Below, in pieces: positions 16,489-55,785 of a stretch of 64,000 bases of DNA (position 1 is the stretch's first letter; every line of letters begins with the position of its first letter). Source of the DNA: an uncultured Candidatus Rokubacteria bacterium (lineage in GTDB: Bacteria > Methylomirabilota > Methylomirabilia > Rokubacteriales > DASRDR01). The position numbers and the translations under genes are program-made. The notes below the pieces were generated by a model. It was not told where the DNA came from, ran no database searches, and worked only from the letters and a program-made list of their open reading frames with translations. The stretch lies in the NCBI GenBank assembly GCA_963805625.1, contig CAWDVE010000019.1, positions 96,001 to 160,000 of the forward strand, in the 5' to 3' direction.

Positions 16489-16817
16489 AGGAGGACGGTG
16501 TCATGGCGGACAGGATCGACGTCGAAGAGGCCCGGGACAAGGTCACGGAGGGCGAGGCCCTGCTCGTGTGCGCGTACGAGGACGATTCGAAGTGCGACCG
16601 CATCAAGCTCGAGGGGGCGATCGCTCTCACCGAGTTCCGGATGCTTGCGGAGTCGCTACCGAGGGACAAGGAGATCATCTTCTATTGTGCCTGACCCGCG
16701 GAGGCGTCGGCCGCCAGTTTGGCGGACCGTTATCGCGCGAAGGGCTTCACGCGGACGAAGGCGCTGCGGGGCGGCGTCGAGGCCTGGCAGCACGCGGGGT
16801 ATCCGATGGCTGCCTAG
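16485..16817 (+). CDS. Rhodanese-like selenoprotein (CxU), UGA at 16692-16694
   Basis: IIFYCA-UGA-PAEASAA...ALRGGVEAWQHAGYP continues in frame and completes the rhodanese fold; SECIS-like hairpin at 16708-16729. Confidence 0.8.
16708..16729 (+). promoter_or_regulatory. Putative bacterial SECIS element
   Basis: CCGCCA-GUU-UGGCGG stem-loop shortly after the in-frame UGA, G in the loop. Confidence 0.6.
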
Positions 16818-48882: not shown

Positions 48883-48949
48883 GCCCGCGACGGTCGATCG
48901 GTCATCGCCCGATGTCTCACCCGTGGCGAGGGACGGGAGGTCCGGATCT

Positions 48950-50899
48950 ATGTTCGAGCACCTGCTGAGTCCGCTCAGGGTTGGCCGGCTCACGCTGCGC
49001 AGCCGCGTCCTCATCACCGCGCACGCGACGAACTTCGTCGACGCCGACGGGCTGCCCGACGCGCGGGCCGTCCACTACTACGCCGAGCGCGCGAGGGGCG
49101 GCGTCGGGCTCATGGTAACCGGCGCCTCCAGCGTTCACCCCTCGAGCCCGCGCGTGCGCGGCGTGGTCAACGCCCACGATCCCCGGGCCGGCCAGGCCTG
49201 GCGCGCGATCGCCGATGCGGTGCACGCCCAGCAGGGCCGCATCCTGGTCATGTTGACCCACATGGGGCGCGTGGGCCGGATGCCCGATATGCGGCCGCTG
49301 GTGGCACCGTCGCCGCTGATCGACGGGAACTTCCACCAGGCGGTGCCGCACGCCCTGGACACGCGGGAGATCGCCGAGATCGTCGCCGCCTTCGCCGAGG
49401 CCGCCGCGCGCGTGCGCGCCAGCGGGATGGACGGCGTCGAGCTGCAGGGCGCCCATGGATATCTCATCGCCCAGTTCCTCTCACCGCTCTCGAACCGCCG
49501 GACCGACGGTTACGGCGGCGACTTCGCCGGACGGTTACGCTTCGGCCTGGAGGTCGTGGACGCCGTGCGCCGGGCGGTCGGCCGCGACTACACGCTCGGA
49601 ATCCGGCTCTCCGCCGACGAGCTGGTCCCCGGGGGCATCGCGCTGGAGGAGTCACAGGAGGTCGTGCGGCGGCTCACCGCGACCGGCCACCTCGACTTCA
49701 TCGACATCAGCGCCGGGACGGACTCGGACCTGATGAGCCTGGCCGAGCACATCCCGTCCATGTACTTCCCGCCCGCCAACCTGGTCCACTTCGCGGCGGC
49801 GATCAAGCCGGTGACGCGGCTCCCGGTCTTCTGTGCGGGGGCGATCCGCGATCCCGCCGTCGCCGAGGGAATCGTCGCGAGTGGCCAGGCCGACATGGTG
49901 GGCATGACCCGGGCGCACATCGCGGACCCCCACGTGGTGCGAAAGCTCCGTGAGGGACGGGCCGAGGACATCCGCCGGTGCATCGGCTGCATGCAGGCGT
50001 GCCTCGAGGCGCTGGCCAACGGCCTGCCGATCGGGTGCGTGTACAACCCGGTCACGGGGCGCGAAGGGGAGTGGGCTACGCTCGAGCCGGCCCCGCGGCA
50101 GCGGCGCGTGGTGGTCGTGGGCGGCGGCCCGGCGGGCCTGGAGGCGGCGCGGGTCGCCGCGCTCCGTGGCCACCGCGTGGTGCTCCTCGAGGCGTCGGCG
50201 CGGCTCGGCGGCCAGCTTCACCTGGCGGCGAGGCTCCCGAAACGCGAGAACTTCCTGGAGATCGTCAGCTTCCTCTCGCGGCAGACTGCAAAGCTCGGCG
50301 TCGAGGTGAGGCTCGGCTGTCGCGCCGATGTCGACATGGTCCGGGCGGAGCGTCCTGATACGGTCGTGGTGGCGACCGGAAGCCGTCCCACGATCCCGGA
50401 CGGGCTGTCCGGCGTGCCGGGGTCGCTCGTTCATGTGGCGGACGTTGTGAGCGGCGAGGCCCGCGTGGGCGACCGCGTCCTGGTCGTGGATCAGGACGGC
50501 CACCTGCGAGGGTCGGGGGTGGCTGACCTCCTCGCTGGCCAGGGTCGCCGGGTCTCCATCGTGAGCGAGCAGCTCTACGTGGGGCTGGGCATCGACCTGA
50601 AGACGCTCTACCCCTTGCAGCGCCGACTGCGCGAGCAGGGTGTCGAGATGCTGCCGTCGACCCGGTTCGTCGGCTGGGACGCCGGGCGCCCGCTGGTCGC
50701 CGACGTCTTTACCGGGGCCGAGCGGACGCTGGCCGACGTCGATACGGTGGTCTGGGCCGCCGCGGGCCGCGTGGTCGCCGAGCTCGTCGAGCCGCTTCGC
50801 TTGGCCGGGCTCCCGGTCCACGCGGTCGGTGACTGCGTCGCGCCCCGGCGAGTCGAGCACGCCGTCCACGAGGCCCACGCGGTCGCCCGCGCGCTCTAG
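48950..50899 (+). CDS. NADH:flavin oxidoreductase (OYE barrel + FeS + FAD domain; 2,4-dienoyl-CoA reductase/TMADH-like)
   Basis: HGYLIAQFLSP, NRRTDGYGG, CIGCMQAC...CVYNP, GGGPAG, GDCVAPR. Confidence 0.9.
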   Translation: MFEHLLSPLRVGRLTLRSRVLITAHATNFVDADGLPDARAVHYYAERARGGVGLMVTGASSVHPSSPRVRGVVNAHDPRAGQAWRAIADAVHAQQGRILVMLTHMGRVGRMPDMRPLVAPSPLIDGNFHQAVPHALDTREIAEIVAAFAEAAARVRASGMDGVELQGAHGYLIAQFLSPLSNRRTDGYGGDFAGRLRFGLEVVDAVRRAVGRDYTLGIRLSADELVPGGIALEESQEVVRRLTATGHLDFIDISAGTDSDLMSLAEHIPSMYFPPANLVHFAAAIKPVTRLPVFCAGAIRDPAVAEGIVASGQADMVGMTRAHIADPHVVRKLREGRAEDIRRCIGCMQACLEALANGLPIGCVYNPVTGREGEWATLEPAPRQRRVVVVGGGPAGLEAARVAALRGHRVVLLEASARLGGQLHLAARLPKRENFLEIVSFLSRQTAKLGVEVRLGCRADVDMVRAERPDTVVVATGSRPTIPDGLSGVPGSLVHVADVVSGEARVGDRVLVVDQDGHLRGSGVADLLAGQGRRVSIVSEQLYVGLGIDLKTLYPLQRRLREQGVEMLPSTRFVGWDAGRPLVADVFTGAERTLADVDTVVWAAAGRVVAELVEPLRLAGLPVHAVGDCVAPRRVEHAVHEAHAVARAL

Positions 50900-51028
50900 C
50901 GACGGACCCTTGTCCACGCTGTCGTTCTACCTGGTGCTCGGTAGGAGCGTGAGACACCGGGCCTGACGCCTCGGCCGAGTCCGGGGCGAACATGAGACTC
51001 CGGCTGGGCTGAGGGGAGAGAGACGGTT

Positions 51029-51721
51029 CTACGCGTGGCGCTCGTGAGCCGCTCGCTCCACGTCCTCGCGGACGAGCAGGCCGATCAGCTCTCCGGCCGA
51101 GGTCGTCACGGGCGCGTTCGGGAGATCGTGCTGGGCCATGTGCTCCGCGATCTCGGCGATGGCAACGTTCGGTCGGAAGGTGCTCGGTCCGGGGCGCATG
51201 GCGGACTCGGCCGTGAGGTCTCCTTCCCGGCCAAGCTGCTCGGCGCGGAGAAGCCCCATGACGATCCGCGCCTCGTTGACCACGACGCAGGCGTCCCACC
51301 CCACCGCTCGGGCGCGCTCCCGCACGTCCCGGAGGGATTCTTCGAGATGGCACATCGGCACGTCCCGGCGCGCGATCGTCCCCGCGGTGGGCCGGCCTGA
51401 CGCCTCGCCCTCGGTGGGGAGTCCGGCTGCCATCCAGTCCGACTTGCCCGCCGGGTAGTCGTACACGTCGAGGAACCCGAGGCTCTCGAGCCGCCACGCG
51501 GCTCGTGGACTCAGGTCTCAGGCGGAGTCCCAGCAGTAGACGACGACCGGGCGGTCGGGATCCAGGGCAGCCCTGGCCTCCGCGTCGATCTTCCTAAGGG
51601 GGAGGTGGATCGCGCCCGGAAGATGCCGCTCGTCGAACGCTTCCCTGGGCAGCACCTCGACGAGTTGCGCACCCTCCGCCACCAGCCGCCGCACGTCCTC
51701 GCGTCCGATATGGGTCGGCAT
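51029..51721 (-). CDS. Rhodanese-CBS domain selenoprotein, UGA at 51518-51520
   Basis: ORFs 51518-51721 and 51029-51466 share a frame: VVVYCWDSA-UGA-DLSPRAAWRLESLGFLDVYDYPAGKSDW, then a CBS pair; perfect 8-bp hairpin after the UGA. Confidence 0.82.
51487..51505 (-). promoter_or_regulatory. Putative bacterial SECIS element
   Basis: CGAGCCGC-GUG-GCGGCUCG starts 12 nt after the UGA; GU in the loop. Confidence 0.65.
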
Positions 51722-51937
51722 GTCTCTTCCTCCAGGTCGCCCGTTCCCCTCAAGCGGTACCGCACCTTCCGGTCGAACCCGGGCGCTCGGTCACGGGAGC
51801 CCTCGTCCGTTCGTCGCGATCGCACGCAGCTCATCGGCGAGACCCGTCAGCTGCGCCCCGGCGGTCATCCACTGCTATCATAGCGCCGGCGTCCGGACCT
51901 CCCCACCGGCGTGCCGGCACATCGAGGAGGCGCGAGC

Positions 51938-53992
51938 GTGCAGATGGGCGTGGACATCGGCGGCACCTTCACCGACATCGTCGCGCTCGGCGATGATGGC
52001 CGGCTCCACCTGACCAAGGTGCCGACCACTCCGAAGGACCTGCTCCGCGGCCTCGCCGCCGCCGTCCGGGGGGTGCTCGCGCTGGCCGGGGCGGAGGCGG
52101 GCGGCGTCCGGCGCTTCATCCACGGGACCACCGTCGCCACGAACGCCATCCTCGAGCAGACCGGCGCTGTCACCGGCGTGTTCATGACCGCGGGCTTCGA
52201 GGACGTTCTCGAACTCGGCCGGCAGAAGCGCTCCCGCATGTACGACCTCGACATGGATGCGGAGACGCCCGCGTTCCTGGCCCCGCGGCGCCGCCGGGTG
52301 GGGATCCGCGAGCGGCTCGACGCCCGCGGCCGGGTCCTGGTGCCGCTGGACGAGGCCCAGGTGCGAGCGGAGGCAGCCAGGCTCCGGGACGAGGGGATCC
52401 AGGCGCTCGCCGTCTGCTACCTCTTCTCGTTCCTCGATCCCGCGCACGAGCGCCGGACACGCGAGCTCATCCGCGAGGTCGCCCCGGGCGTCGCGATCTC
52501 GCTCTCCTCCGAGGTCGACCCCACCTTCCGCGAGTACGAGCGGCTCTGCGTGACCGCCTTCGACGCGTATCTCGGGCCCCTCGTCGGCCGTTACCTGGCC
52601 GGCCTCAGCGAGACGCTGCGGCGCCTCGGCGTGACCGCGGTGCCGCAGATCATGCGGTCCCGGGGGGGGATCGTGTCGGCGGCCGTCGCCAGGCGTCAGC
52701 CCGTCACCCTCTTCCTGTCCGGCCCAGCGGGCGGCGTCATCGGGGCGCAGTACGCGGCCGAGCGCTCCGGCGTACGGGACTTCATCTCGCTCGACATGGG
52801 CGGGACCAGCAACGACGTGAGCGTGGTCCACGGGGGCCAACCTGTCGTGGCGGCCGAAGGGCGGATCGGACCCTATCCGGTGCGGACACCGATGGTGGAC
52901 GTCAACACGATCGGCGCCGGGGGCGGGAGCATCGCGTGGTTGGATGCCGCCGGCGGCCTCCGGGTGGGTCCCCGGAGCGCGGGGGCGGAGCCGGGGCCCG
53001 CCTGCTACGGCCGGGGCGGGGACCGGCCGACCGTGACCGACGCGAGTGTCCTGCTCGGGTTCCTCGACCCCGCGAGCTTCGCGGGGGGATCGATCCGGCT
53101 CGACGTCCGCGCCTCGGAGACCGCGGTCGCGACGGTGGCCGGGCCCCTCGGGCTCGACCTCGTCGAGGCCGCCGCCGGCATCCACCGCGTGGTCAACGCA
53201 CGGATGGCCGACCAGATCCGGCTCATGACGATCCAGCGTGGGCACGATCCGCGAGGATTCACGCTGGTGCTCCTCGGCGGGGCGGGCCCGGTGCACGGCG
53301 CGTCCCTGGCGGAGGAGCTTGGCCTGCGGGACGTGCTCGTCCCGGAGGCGCCCGGCGTACTCTCGGCGCTCGGCCTCCTCGCCGCGGCCGTCGAGCACCA
53401 CCACGCCCGGACGCACCAGAGCGTGGTCGAGTCGGCGGACCTCGCCGCGATCGACGCGCTGCTCCGAGATCTCGACGCCACGGGCCGCGCCCAGATGCGC
53501 GACGAGGACGTGCCGCCCGACGCGGTAGAGGTGGCCTACACCGCGGATATGCGATACGTCGGCCAGGCGTACGAGCTTCCGGTGCCGATCCGGGCGCCGC
53601 TCGCCGCGGCGGATCTCGCGGGCGTCGAGGTCGCCTTCCACGCCGTCCACGAGCGTGTCTACGGCTACGCGCGCGCCGGCCAGCCCGTGGAGTTCGTCAA
53701 CCTCCGCGCCGTCCACACCTACCGTCTGCCGGCGCCCCGGATCCGACCGTCCGACCGGGCGCGCGGGACGGCGGCCGCCGCCCGGGTGGCCGAGCGCCCG
53801 GTGCACTTCGCGCCGGCGGGCTTCGTGCGGACGCCAATCTACGCGCGCCCCCGTCTGCCGCTCGGCGCCGAGCTCTCCGGGCCGGCCATCGTCGAACAGC
53901 CCGATACCACAACTGTCGTGCCGCCGGGCTGGGCGGCGCGCGTGGAAGAGTCGGGGAACCTCCTGCTCCGGCGCAGCCAGGGAGAGTCGTGA
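51938..53992 (+). CDS. Hydantoinase/oxoprolinase subunit A (second paralog)
   Basis: GVDIGGTFTD, HGTTVATN, SGPAGG, DMGGTS; GAGGAGG RBS. Confidence 0.93.
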   Translation: MQMGVDIGGTFTDIVALGDDGRLHLTKVPTTPKDLLRGLAAAVRGVLALAGAEAGGVRRFIHGTTVATNAILEQTGAVTGVFMTAGFEDVLELGRQKRSRMYDLDMDAETPAFLAPRRRRVGIRERLDARGRVLVPLDEAQVRAEAARLRDEGIQALAVCYLFSFLDPAHERRTRELIREVAPGVAISLSSEVDPTFREYERLCVTAFDAYLGPLVGRYLAGLSETLRRLGVTAVPQIMRSRGGIVSAAVARRQPVTLFLSGPAGGVIGAQYAAERSGVRDFISLDMGGTSNDVSVVHGGQPVVAAEGRIGPYPVRTPMVDVNTIGAGGGSIAWLDAAGGLRVGPRSAGAEPGPACYGRGGDRPTVTDASVLLGFLDPASFAGGSIRLDVRASETAVATVAGPLGLDLVEAAAGIHRVVNARMADQIRLMTIQRGHDPRGFTLVLLGGAGPVHGASLAEELGLRDVLVPEAPGVLSALGLLAAAVEHHHARTHQSVVESADLAAIDALLRDLDATGRAQMRDEDVPPDAVEVAYTADMRYVGQAYELPVPIRAPLAAADLAGVEVAFHAVHERVYGYARAGQPVEFVNLRAVHTYRLPAPRIRPSDRARGTAAAARVAERPVHFAPAGFVRTPIYARPRLPLGAELSGPAIVEQPDTTTVVPPGWAARVEESGNLLLRRSQGES

Positions 53993-55785
53993 TGGCGACG
54001 CGGGCCGTCGACCCGATCCTGCTGGAGGTCATCCGGAACCGGCTGGAGACGATCGCCGACGAGATGGAGCTGACGCTCCTGAAGAGCGCCGCCTCTCCGA
54101 TCGTGAAGGAGGGGCTCGACGCGTCCGCCGCCCTCTTCAATGTGCGCGGGGAGACGATTGCCCAGGCGGCGGCGATTCCCATCCACCTCGGGTGTCTCGA
54201 ACTCGCCGCCCGCCGGATCGTGCGGGCCTTCCCGCCGCAGACGATGGCGGAGGGGGACGCGTTCCTCCTGAACGACCCGTACGACGGCGGCACGCATCTG
54301 CCCGACATCACCCTGGCGGTCCCGGTGCTGGCCGACGGGCGCGTCGTCGCGCTGGCATGCACGATGTGCCACCACCAGGACGTCGGGGGCCGCACGCCGG
54401 GCAGCGTGCCGACGGACGCCACGGAGATCTACCAGGAGGGGCTCATCATCCCGCCGACTCGGTTGTTCCGCGGGGGCGCGCTTGATGAGAACCTGTTCGC
54501 CCTCCTCCGCCGCAACGTGCGCATCCCGGACGTGTTCACCGGGGACCTCATGGCCCAGGTGGCCGCGGGTCGCCTCGGCGGGATCCGCCTCAACGAGCTG
54601 TTCGTCCGCTACGGAACCGAGACCGTGCTCGGATACGTCGACGAGCTGCTCGAGCGCGCGGAGACCCTGACGCGCCGCGGAATCGAGGCCATTCCCGACG
54701 GGACCTACGCCTTCGCCGACTGGCTCGACAACGACGGGATCGACGACCGCCCGGTCCGGATCCAGGTGGCGGTGACCGTGCGAGGCTCGACGATGACCTT
54801 CGACTTCACGGGCACGAGTCCCCAGGTCCGCGGTCCGTTCAACTCGGTGCCCGCTTCCACTCTGTCCGCGGTCTACTACGCCGTGCGCGCCATCTCGGAC
54901 CCGACCGTTCCGAACAACGGCGGCTGCTTCCGGGCGGTCGACACGGTGCTGCCGCTCGGGAGCCTCGTCAATCCTCGGCCGCCGGCCCCGGTAAGCTGCC
55001 GCACGGCCACCATCAAGCGGATCGCCGACACCATCCTGGGCGCTCTCGTCAGGGCCCTCCCGCAGCGCATGCCGGCGGCCAGCTCCGGCACGCTCCTCGT
55101 GATGGCCTTCGGGGGGACAGATCCCGGGACGGGCCGCCCGTTCGTCGCCAGCGAGCTGGCCGCGGGCGGCATGGGCGCCCGCCCCGCGAAGGACGGCATC
55201 CACGTGGTTGAGACCGACGTGACTAACTGCATGAACATCCCTGTCGAAGCGCTCGAGATGAATTTCCCGCTCCGGGTGACCCGGGCCGGCCTGTGGACGG
55301 ACTCAGCCGGCGCGGGCGCGGCGCGGGGCGGCCTCGGGCTCGAGAAGGTCTTCGAAGCCACCGTCACCGACGTCACTGTCGCCCACCGCAGCGAGCGGTT
55401 TGCCTCGGCGCCGTGGGGGCTCTTCGGCGGCGGCCCGGCGCGGCGCGGGCGCGCCTTCCTCGTTCGGCGCGACGGGACCCGGGAGGAGGTGCCCTCCAAG
55501 AAGATGCTCGTGCTCCATCCCGGCGACCAGCTGTGGGAGTACATCCCGGGCGGCGCCGGCTGGGGGGACGCGCTCGAGCGCGATCCGGACCGGGTGCTCG
55601 CGGACGCGCTCGACCGTGCGATCTCGGTCGAGGCCGCCCGCGCCGAGTACGGCGTCGTCCTCTCACCAGACGGGACGGCCGTCGATCACGACGCGACAAA
55701 GGAGTGCCGCGACGCGATGCGCCGGGCCCGCGGGCCCATCCGCTGGGTTTTTGACCGGGGCGGCGAGCACGGCCGCGAGGGCTGA
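53992..55785 (+). CDS. Hydantoinase B/oxoprolinase subunit B (second paralog)
   Basis: NDPYDGGTHLPD, HHQDVGG, EIYQEG, NIPVE; TGATG overlap. Confidence 0.93.
   Translation: MATRAVDPILLEVIRNRLETIADEMELTLLKSAASPIVKEGLDASAALFNVRGETIAQAAAIPIHLGCLELAARRIVRAFPPQTMAEGDAFLLNDPYDGGTHLPDITLAVPVLADGRVVALACTMCHHQDVGGRTPGSVPTDATEIYQEGLIIPPTRLFRGGALDENLFALLRRNVRIPDVFTGDLMAQVAAGRLGGIRLNELFVRYGTETVLGYVDELLERAETLTRRGIEAIPDGTYAFADWLDNDGIDDRPVRIQVAVTVRGSTMTFDFTGTSPQVRGPFNSVPASTLSAVYYAVRAISDPTVPNNGGCFRAVDTVLPLGSLVNPRPPAPVSCRTATIKRIADTILGALVRALPQRMPAASSGTLLVMAFGGTDPGTGRPFVASELAAGGMGARPAKDGIHVVETDVTNCMNIPVEALEMNFPLRVTRAGLWTDSAGAGAARGGLGLEKVFEATVTDVTVAHRSERFASAPWGLFGGGPARRGRAFLVRRDGTREEVPSKKMLVLHPGDQLWEYIPGGAGWGDALERDPDRVLADALDRAISVEAARAEYGVVLSPDGTAVDHDATKECRDAMRRARGPIRWVFDRGGEHGREG

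Follow-up and report, generated by a model that had tools for sequence, protein, structure and literature searches.

A candidate selenoprotein joining a rhodanese domain with a C-x4-U loop to a CBS pair

The window, i.e. the whole 64,000-nucleotide stretch of DNA analysed, carries on its minus strand a gene whose codon-68 TGA is almost certainly decoded as selenocysteine, which would give one 230-residue protein made of a rhodanese domain and a CBS pair. It is a well-supported selenoprotein gene of a subfamily that is apparently uncatalogued, selenium proteins of the rhodanese fold being already known. In the loop, which is lengthened and acidic, Sec68 would follow Cys63 as the second member of a C-x4-U pair, an arrangement that suggests a redox function rather than simple thiosulfate transfer. 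Our preferred reading joins Sec decoding, a Cys63/Sec68 redox pair and re-reduction of the pair by a thioredoxin-fold partner. Taken jointly, and with all of the chemistry inferred, these have a probability of about 0.55 in our estimate, ahead of metal capture, plain sulfurtransferase activity and the absence of recoding.

Results

Overall structure of the gene and protein

The gene comprises the following features.

51029..51721, minus strand: rhodanese-CBS gene, 230 codons plus TAG, predicted Sec at codon 68 (reading frame, Pfam, AlphaFold2, VIA).
51729..51733, minus strand: GGAGG, Shine-Dalgarno-like, ATG 7 nt downstream (seen in the sequence).
51518..51520, minus strand: in-frame TGA, predicted Sec68 (of 145 family loci, 140 carry TGA and 5 TGC).
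51533..51535, minus strand: codon of Cys63, at the catalytic position of classical rhodaneses (100 of 101 loci encode Cys here, and the remaining one, L110, has TGA).
51487..51505, minus strand: SECIS-type hairpin with an 8-bp stem and a GUG loop, within the RAAWRL codons (sequence, folding, codon statistics).
51404..51721, minus strand: rhodanese-fold domain, residues ~1-106 (Pfam PF00581; VIA match to 3nhv).
51032..51397, minus strand: CBS pair, residues ~109-230 (Pfam PF00571; VIA match to 6uof).

The gene runs from an ATG at 51721-51719 to a TAG at 51031-51029 and contains a single in-frame TGA, at codon 68. Under translation table 11 it appears as two open reading frames of 67 aa (51518-51721) and 145 aa (51029-51466), both in one frame. 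When the TGA is read as U, the product is 230 aa long and contains YCWDSAUDLSPRAAWRL, with the motif Y-C63-W-D-S-A-U68-D. The initial annotation had joined the two frames into one gene, and the shared frame and the domain match bear this out: Pfam Rhodanese covers residues 9-98, crossing the TGA, with 51.7 bits versus 38 for the 67-aa piece alone. A Pfam CBS match covers residues 173-225 of the read-through protein.

The AlphaFold2 model (32-sequence alignment, Cys in place of Sec) has a mean pLDDT of 95.3 and a pTM of 0.84. In VIA searches, predicted residues 1-106 match 3nhv (Z 17.0, rmsd 2.0, 108 aligned) and predicted residues 109-230 match 6uof (Z 17.7, rmsd 1.7, 116 aligned). Pfam, the model and the alignment agree on a rhodanese fold with Cys at the first loop position, and the model and VIA on two CBS repeats that form a Bateman module. 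The plus-strand reading of 51029-51721 yields no sensible protein and was rejected. No sigma-70 promoter site was found in a scan of 50800-52000.

The hairpin downstream of the UGA

The TGA is followed by a 12-nt spacer and then by CGAGCCGC / GTG / GCGGCTCG, which forms eight Watson-Crick pairs. The loop is the 3-nt GUG and lies 20 nt from the UGA; the 28-nt core has a folding energy of -15.1 kcal/mol. The bSECIS model, as set out in the available part of PMC13188914, has a loop of 3-9 nt located 16-37 nt from the UGA, a stem of 4-16 bp, a G within the first two loop positions and an energy of -7.5 kcal/mol or lower. The hairpin lies within all of these limits, and the geometry described in the initial annotation (a perfect 8-bp, GUG-loop hairpin beginning 12 nt after the UGA) is exact.

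The hairpin of one gene by itself exceeds chance only modestly. Its stability has z = -1.92, with 6 of 200 shuffles folding equally well, and when the peptide is recoded at random with synonymous codons, 8/8 pairs arise in 3.9% of draws. A chance origin is ruled out because the pairing is kept across the family: 54 of the 62 UGA genes encoding RAAWRL form 8/8 pairs and all 62 form at least 7.

Codon statistics were chosen because the stem sits in near-invariant codons. In 95 distinct TGA genes the stem codons are GCC (94/95), GCG (94/95), CGG (94/94) and CTC (91/94), a conservation of 97-100%. In the control, 52 other conserved degenerate columns (Ala, Arg, Leu, Gly, Pro, Val, Thr or Ser), the commonest codon reaches a median of 50% and a maximum of 69%. 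The arginine codon CGC accounts for 36% elsewhere versus 1% at Arg73, and is absent at Arg77. The stem codons are locked in 136 of 140 TGA genes versus 1 of 5 TGC genes.

Conservation of codon 68 across the family

The family was sampled at 145 loci, 101 from genomes and 44 from metagenomes. Codon 68 is TGA in 140, TGC in 5 and TGG in none, and TGA at this one codon spans several phyla, with a median pairwise protein identity among the loci of ~50%. These counts answer the question, raised in the initial annotation, of whether homologs have Cys or UGA here; likewise, 40 of the 50 full-length database proteins have Cys.

The host is probably a Methylomirabilota bacterium of the Rokubacteria type, judging by the label on a homolog with 79% identity (P0115). 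In the host's own phylum, 19 of 251 genomes match at E 1e-15 or better, and TGA occupies codon 68 in 21/21 full-length matches. The 101 genome loci, which include the window's own gene, one duplicate (L109) and the best 80 of 450 loci from a species-genome collection, divide into 96 TGA and 5 TGC. A metagenome scan with P0107, aimed at the DNA behind the W-form database proteins described below, returned 54 loci, of which 44 have TGA, 3 are non-family or misaligned and 7 do not cover the codon; all are relatives only, the best at 60-79% identity. Among 40 differences listed for assembled contigs over the UGA, none falls on the codon, and among the contigs listed no near-identical one bridges the UGA by 31 bases on each side. 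Contigs from one metatranscriptome are mostly less than 95% alike, i.e. they come from relatives of this organism.

A quick maximum-likelihood tree, unrooted, of 140 sequences (95 Sec and 45 Cys) contains 13 Sec/Cys changes, at least 5 of which are forced by well-supported branches. The alignment retained the motif column with Sec written as Cys; W, R and S forms, metagenome loci, L109 and sequences shorter than 190 aa were left out. Own-phylum copies fall in several separate groups of the tree, which suggests repeated transfer. The gene of L052, a locus labelled as archaeal, is sister to a Chloroflexi copy, and its genome has a bacterial-type selA; this locus is likely mislabelled or mis-binned.

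Selenocysteine machinery of the host

All four genes named for checking in the initial annotation, selA, selB, selC and selD, are present in the host genome, selB being frameshifted in the assembly. The host has a tRNA-Sec with anticodon TCA and a separate tRNA-Trp(CCA). Its selD is of the Sec type and has an in-frame TGA of its own; the hairpin behind that TGA shares the geometry, having an 8-bp stem 12 nt from the UGA and a 3-nt G-first loop.

The host selB (G000:C21:223591-225524, minus strand; L006) adjoins selA and carries a one-base frameshift at a C/G homopolymer. A 417-nt short-read contig (depth 4.2), otherwise identical, adds one base there and restores the frame, and a 143-nt contig of a relative likewise adds one base. 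Because of these contigs, and because an intact selB exceeds the cut-off in 16 of the 18 related genomes that carry the rhodanese-CBS gene, the frameshift is likely an assembly error, although the basis is thin.

Outside the host's phylum, where 50 of 80 loci were tested, selA occurs in 41/45 TGA-bearing and 3/5 TGC-bearing genomes; it was not found in 4/45 TGA-bearing genomes. This co-occurrence supports recoding weakly, because the background rate in the phylum-wide sample, which includes four unpublished genomes (G301, G348, G388 and G420) used for this tally alone, is already 169/251. A crude scan of the host genome gave 24 TGA-plus-hairpin candidates, many of them recognisable selenoprotein types with 3-nt G-first loops. 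None of the three results that the initial annotation had named as counting against recoding (a genome without Sec machinery, a non-Cys residue in homologs, TGC or TGG in reads) appeared in the DNA, which over the UGA consisted of assembled contigs.

The active-site loop and a putative mechanism

Alignment to solved rhodaneses places Cys63 at the classical catalytic position. The UGA had been assigned to the rhodanese active-site loop; it does lie within the loop, but the classical catalytic residue is Cys63 and not residue 68. The loop has eight residues versus six in 3tp9 or 1yt8. It is thus not the six-residue, single-Cys loop, having two extra residues, Asp65, Asp69 and a second Cys/Sec. 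Tyr62, Asp65, Asp69, Arg73, Ala74 and Ala75 are invariant in the 101 genome loci and Arg77 is near-invariant.

Positions 63 and 68 are both Cys or Sec in 101/101 genome loci. One member, labelled Chloroflexota (L110:3743-3761), has TGA at both, i.e. U-x4-U; selA was not found in its genome, which is incomplete. Among ~58 motif-matched representatives, divergent members are without Cys at position 63 in 5 cases and at position 68 in at least 2. Distant C-x4-C rhodanese domains (P0198 and P0258) are fused to redoxin domains. We read Cys63 and Sec68 as a redox pair because of the Sec/Cys interchange, the redoxin fusions, the thioredoxin-fold neighbours described below and the acidic loop.

In the mechanism that we propose, SelB would, almost beyond doubt, bind the GUG-loop hairpin and deliver Sec-tRNA. 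Cys63 would then accept sulfane sulfur or another thiol-reactive group, like other rhodaneses, and Sec68, five residues downstream, would resolve the Cys63 adduct as a selenenyl-sulfide. A thioredoxin-fold partner would re-reduce the pair. In the weakest step, activity may be tuned by the binding of one adenine nucleotide to the CBS pair.

Rhodanese-fold enzymes of the Cdc25/ACR2 type have a C-x5-R loop. A phosphatase or arsenate reductase of this type was considered and rejected: position 69 is an invariant Asp and the first Arg is at 73.

Comparison with known proteins

A 2026 review (PMC13188914) lists 119 selenoprotein families, including five rhodanese forms, in its available part. There, forms 1-4 have the motifs UxxS, UxxG, CxU (= NF041203) and UxxG; they share the fold and place Sec within or beside the active-site loop, but the position of Sec and the motif differ from those found here. 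The rhodanese-CBS protein, with C-x4-U, is not a member of NF041203 (21.1 bits versus a cut-off of 115). Form 5 is TsoB, with the motif UxxxxU (PMC13188914, Table 1, available part). None of the 119 families is a CBS fusion, and the term 'CBS' is absent from the catalogue text to the extent available.

TsoB (NF045694), rhodanese/DsbD fusion-like, is the nearest of these forms, with a rhodanese domain and two chalcogen residues four apart, and the U-x4-U member (L110) adds to the likeness. NF045694 matches residues 52-111 weakly (E 4.4e-7). With 28.4 bits versus a cut-off of 805, the rhodanese-CBS protein is not TsoB: the TsoB model spans 572 positions and has a DsbD-like part, whereas the protein here has 230 aa, a CBS pair and normally C-x4-U with one Sec. 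TsoB was reportedly defined by Haft and Tolstoy 2025.

The best structural match of the rhodanese domain is BH2092 of Bacillus halodurans (PDB 3NHV, 3O3W), a protein of unknown function. No gap is needed to align its C-x4-C loop with C63-x4-U68, and its second Cys then falls at Sec68. However, BH2092 has one domain and Cys only, and neither the two invariant aspartates nor a CBS pair is present in it. The classical sulfurtransferases (GlpE, PspE, TSTD1, Ab-RLD) share the fold (GlpE in VIA: Z 16.2, rmsd 2.2, 104 aligned) and the Cys at the first loop position, but have a six-residue loop with one Cys in place of eight residues with two chalcogens and two Asp. The loop with Asp65 and Asp69 is also unlike the basic CRxGxR pocket of thiosulfate sulfurtransferase, as described in the available part of PMC11284452. 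Bateman modules share the two CBS repeats (Z up to 17.7), but here only one repeat has the ribose-binding Asp.

No solved rhodanese-CBS fusion is among the 47 sequence or 50 structure matches listed, and no NCBIfam model reaches its cut-off with the protein. Such a family was not found in the available parts of PMC9312934 or PMC12013277, and the main text of the BSepDB paper (PMC13326102), as far as available, contains neither 'rhodanese' nor 'CBS'. In the ESM Atlas there are only automatic 'CBS/rhodanese' clusters. Deng et al. 2026 reportedly screened Methylomirabilota genomes and is said to give unvalidated new candidates; it may already list the rhodanese-CBS protein. That study and Haft and Tolstoy 2025 lie outside our comparison, within which no description of a rhodanese-CBS selenoprotein family was found in the literature.

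Gene neighbourhood and a possible role in metal capture

Within the window it is a solitary gene, facing a flavin oxidoreductase gene in convergent orientation and lying divergent from a hydantoinase/oxoprolinase gene.

48923-50899, plus strand: old-yellow-enzyme-type NADH:flavin oxidoreductase, flanking gene.
51911-55785, plus strand: hydantoinase/oxoprolinase gene and probable partner, flanking genes.

Comparison of neighbours gave no sign of a functional link to either, and the link to the flavin oxidoreductase recurs at only 3 of 144 loci. A conserved operon was rejected: the neighbours vary and the largest cluster covers at most 21/144 loci.

Redox genes do occur beside other members. A DF-family (NF049942) gene lies directly upstream in 5/80 genome and 19/44 metagenome loci, a UxxC redoxin is a neighbour in 1/80 and 9/44, and a TxxU peroxiredoxin in 1/80 and 5/44, the metagenome counts containing many near-copies. 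CcdA-like, DsrE and TrsS-like genes are also found among the neighbours. Within 1.5 kb, 0/21 own-phylum loci (the host and 20 relatives) have redox or mer neighbours.

A compact cluster is seen at L073:2738-7677 and related metagenome loci, with an ArsR-type regulator, a CcdA-like membrane protein and merB. In the L073 cluster a DF-family protein overlaps the start of the rhodanese-CBS gene, and a further gene encodes a candidate UxxC selenoprotein, thioredoxin-like, that matches nothing in Pfam or NCBIfam at the thresholds used.

Selenols bind mercury strongly. The Cys/Sec pair and the aspartates could instead bind soft metals (Hg, organomercurials, As), making the selenoprotein an accessory buffer, shuttle or repair factor in mercury-resistance clusters. 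This reading draws on neighbours counted over each fetched locus (up to 5 kb each side): merA with a C-terminal Cys-Cys at 5/80 genome loci, merB at 4 and ArsR-type regulators at 7. Among 78 genomes, 12 have merA over the NCBIfam cut-off, and in 5 of these 12 it lies beside the rhodanese-CBS gene, against an expected adjacency below 0.1 (arithmetic from locus and genome sizes). In the tree the linked loci occupy about four distinct positions, although two pairs of them are kin, and the catalogue includes selenoproteins resembling MerB and MerT (PMC13188914, Table 1). However, 70/80 genome loci are without a merA, merB or DF neighbour, and merA exceeds the cut-off in 0/19 own-phylum genomes, the host included. 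Mercury islands, moreover, gather many thiol-redox genes, and the linkage may reflect general thiol stress. We regard a role in metal binding as unlikely; the merA/merB linkage does offer a direct functional test.

A stronger version holds that the rhodanese scaffold has become a Cys/Sec dithiol under nucleotide gating, whose task is to capture or process mercury and other soft metals. The family would then be an unrecognised mer accessory and an uncatalogued subfamily, widespread among the Actinomycetota, Chloroflexota, Dormibacterota and Methylomirabilota of soils. As a whole, this version seems to us more doubtful still.

The CBS pair and plain sulfur transfer

The ribose-phosphate motif of CBS domains is G-h-h-T/S-x-x-D. 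In repeat 2, Asp220 is kept in 82/101 loci and Thr/Ser at 217 is rare; in repeat 1, the matching position 162 is not Asp in the 101 loci. Judged by this motif, at most one nucleotide site would be intact.

A selenoprotein of this architecture could also be an ordinary single-site sulfurtransferase or selenium carrier, in which Cys63 forms the persulfide or perselenide, Sec68 is only an accessory nucleophile and the CBS pair acts as an energy-charge switch; this comes near the adenylate-regulated sulfur or selenium transfer suggested in the initial annotation. The fold and the Cys at the classical position fit such an enzyme, and the invariant Arg73 and near-invariant Arg77 after the loop could bind an anion. 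The retained Asp220 would suit the switch, but repeat 1 is without the Asp and repeat 2 mostly without the preceding Thr/Ser. DsrE-family neighbours (2/80 loci) and TrsS-like radical SAM neighbours (3/80) point the same way, yet linkage to selD, selA, selB or sulfur oxidation is absent among neighbour clusters found in at least 3 loci. The loop, two residues longer than the classical one, is acidic, and the costly residue is at 68, not at 63. Plain sulfur or selenium transfer is accordingly improbable in our view, and the Cys63/Sec68 redox pair remains the reading that we favour.

Database annotation

Among the best 120 protein matches, 70 are short pieces that start after the UGA and 50 are full length; the expectation that standard pipelines would split the gene is thus confirmed. 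Position 68 in the 50 full-length proteins is C in 40, W in 8, R in 1 and S in 1. The W forms are the chief observation against the Sec reading. All eight share a single source and lie on contigs of 983-1976 bases; both multi-member W clusters also contain post-UGA fragments. For these reasons we take the W forms to be gene-caller artefacts, which would fit a switch to a code with UGA as Trp.

Termination at the TGA, in a pseudogene or between two genes, is largely refuted and hardly credible, as is its decoding as tryptophan, since the W forms and the frameshift in the assembled host selB, which speak for these readings, are set against one codon shared by 140 loci of several phyla with frozen hairpin codons, a rhodanese fold that a stop would cut in mid-loop, the single-source, short-contig origin of the W forms, the lack of TGG in 145 loci and the separate host tRNAs for Trp and Sec.

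The protein would be a common soil-bacterial selenoprotein. Because public sets mostly present it without its head, as a CBS fragment, or give it a false Trp, annotation conceals how abundant it is and what its active site looks like. A single HMM that includes a Sec rule would mend many of these annotations. Through its C-x4-U loop the family gives selenium-based access to the C-x4-C rhodaneses (BH2092 type), an unstudied class, and the natural Cys, Sec and double-Sec versions allow comparison. The family adds a subfamily and leaves the understanding of selenocysteine decoding unchanged.

Other candidate genes in the host genome

A second rhodanese-like selenoprotein candidate lies in the window at 16503-16817 (plus strand). 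It is 104 aa long with the loop YCAUP (CxU), has a 6-bp hairpin with a GTT loop 22 nt after the TGA, and has no NCBIfam match at E 1e-20. In a third rhodanese-like gene, at G000:C10:514538-515050 (plus strand), the TGA is at the classical catalytic position (LY-U-AC) and the product has an N-terminal hydrophobic segment. A remnant of a paralog, 22 codons of its 5' end at 91% identity, is found at G000:C17:59371-59436 (plus strand); its start is disrupted and unrelated sequence follows.

At G000:C10:1625562-1626944 (minus strand; L180), a frame that appears MerB-like by eye has an in-frame TGA and an 8-bp hairpin with a G-first loop. The gene at G000:C14:196684-198021 (plus strand; L179) encodes a class I flavoprotein disulfide reductase with the fold of glutathione reductase, lipoamide dehydrogenase and MerA, and scores below every listed cut-off. 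This type was not seen in the 119-family table of PMC13188914, as far as that table was available. Its TGA is the second residue of the N-terminal redox pair (C-x4-U) and is followed by a G-first hairpin. Matches in 61 genomes have at least one TGA in 19/19 cases and exactly one in 17.
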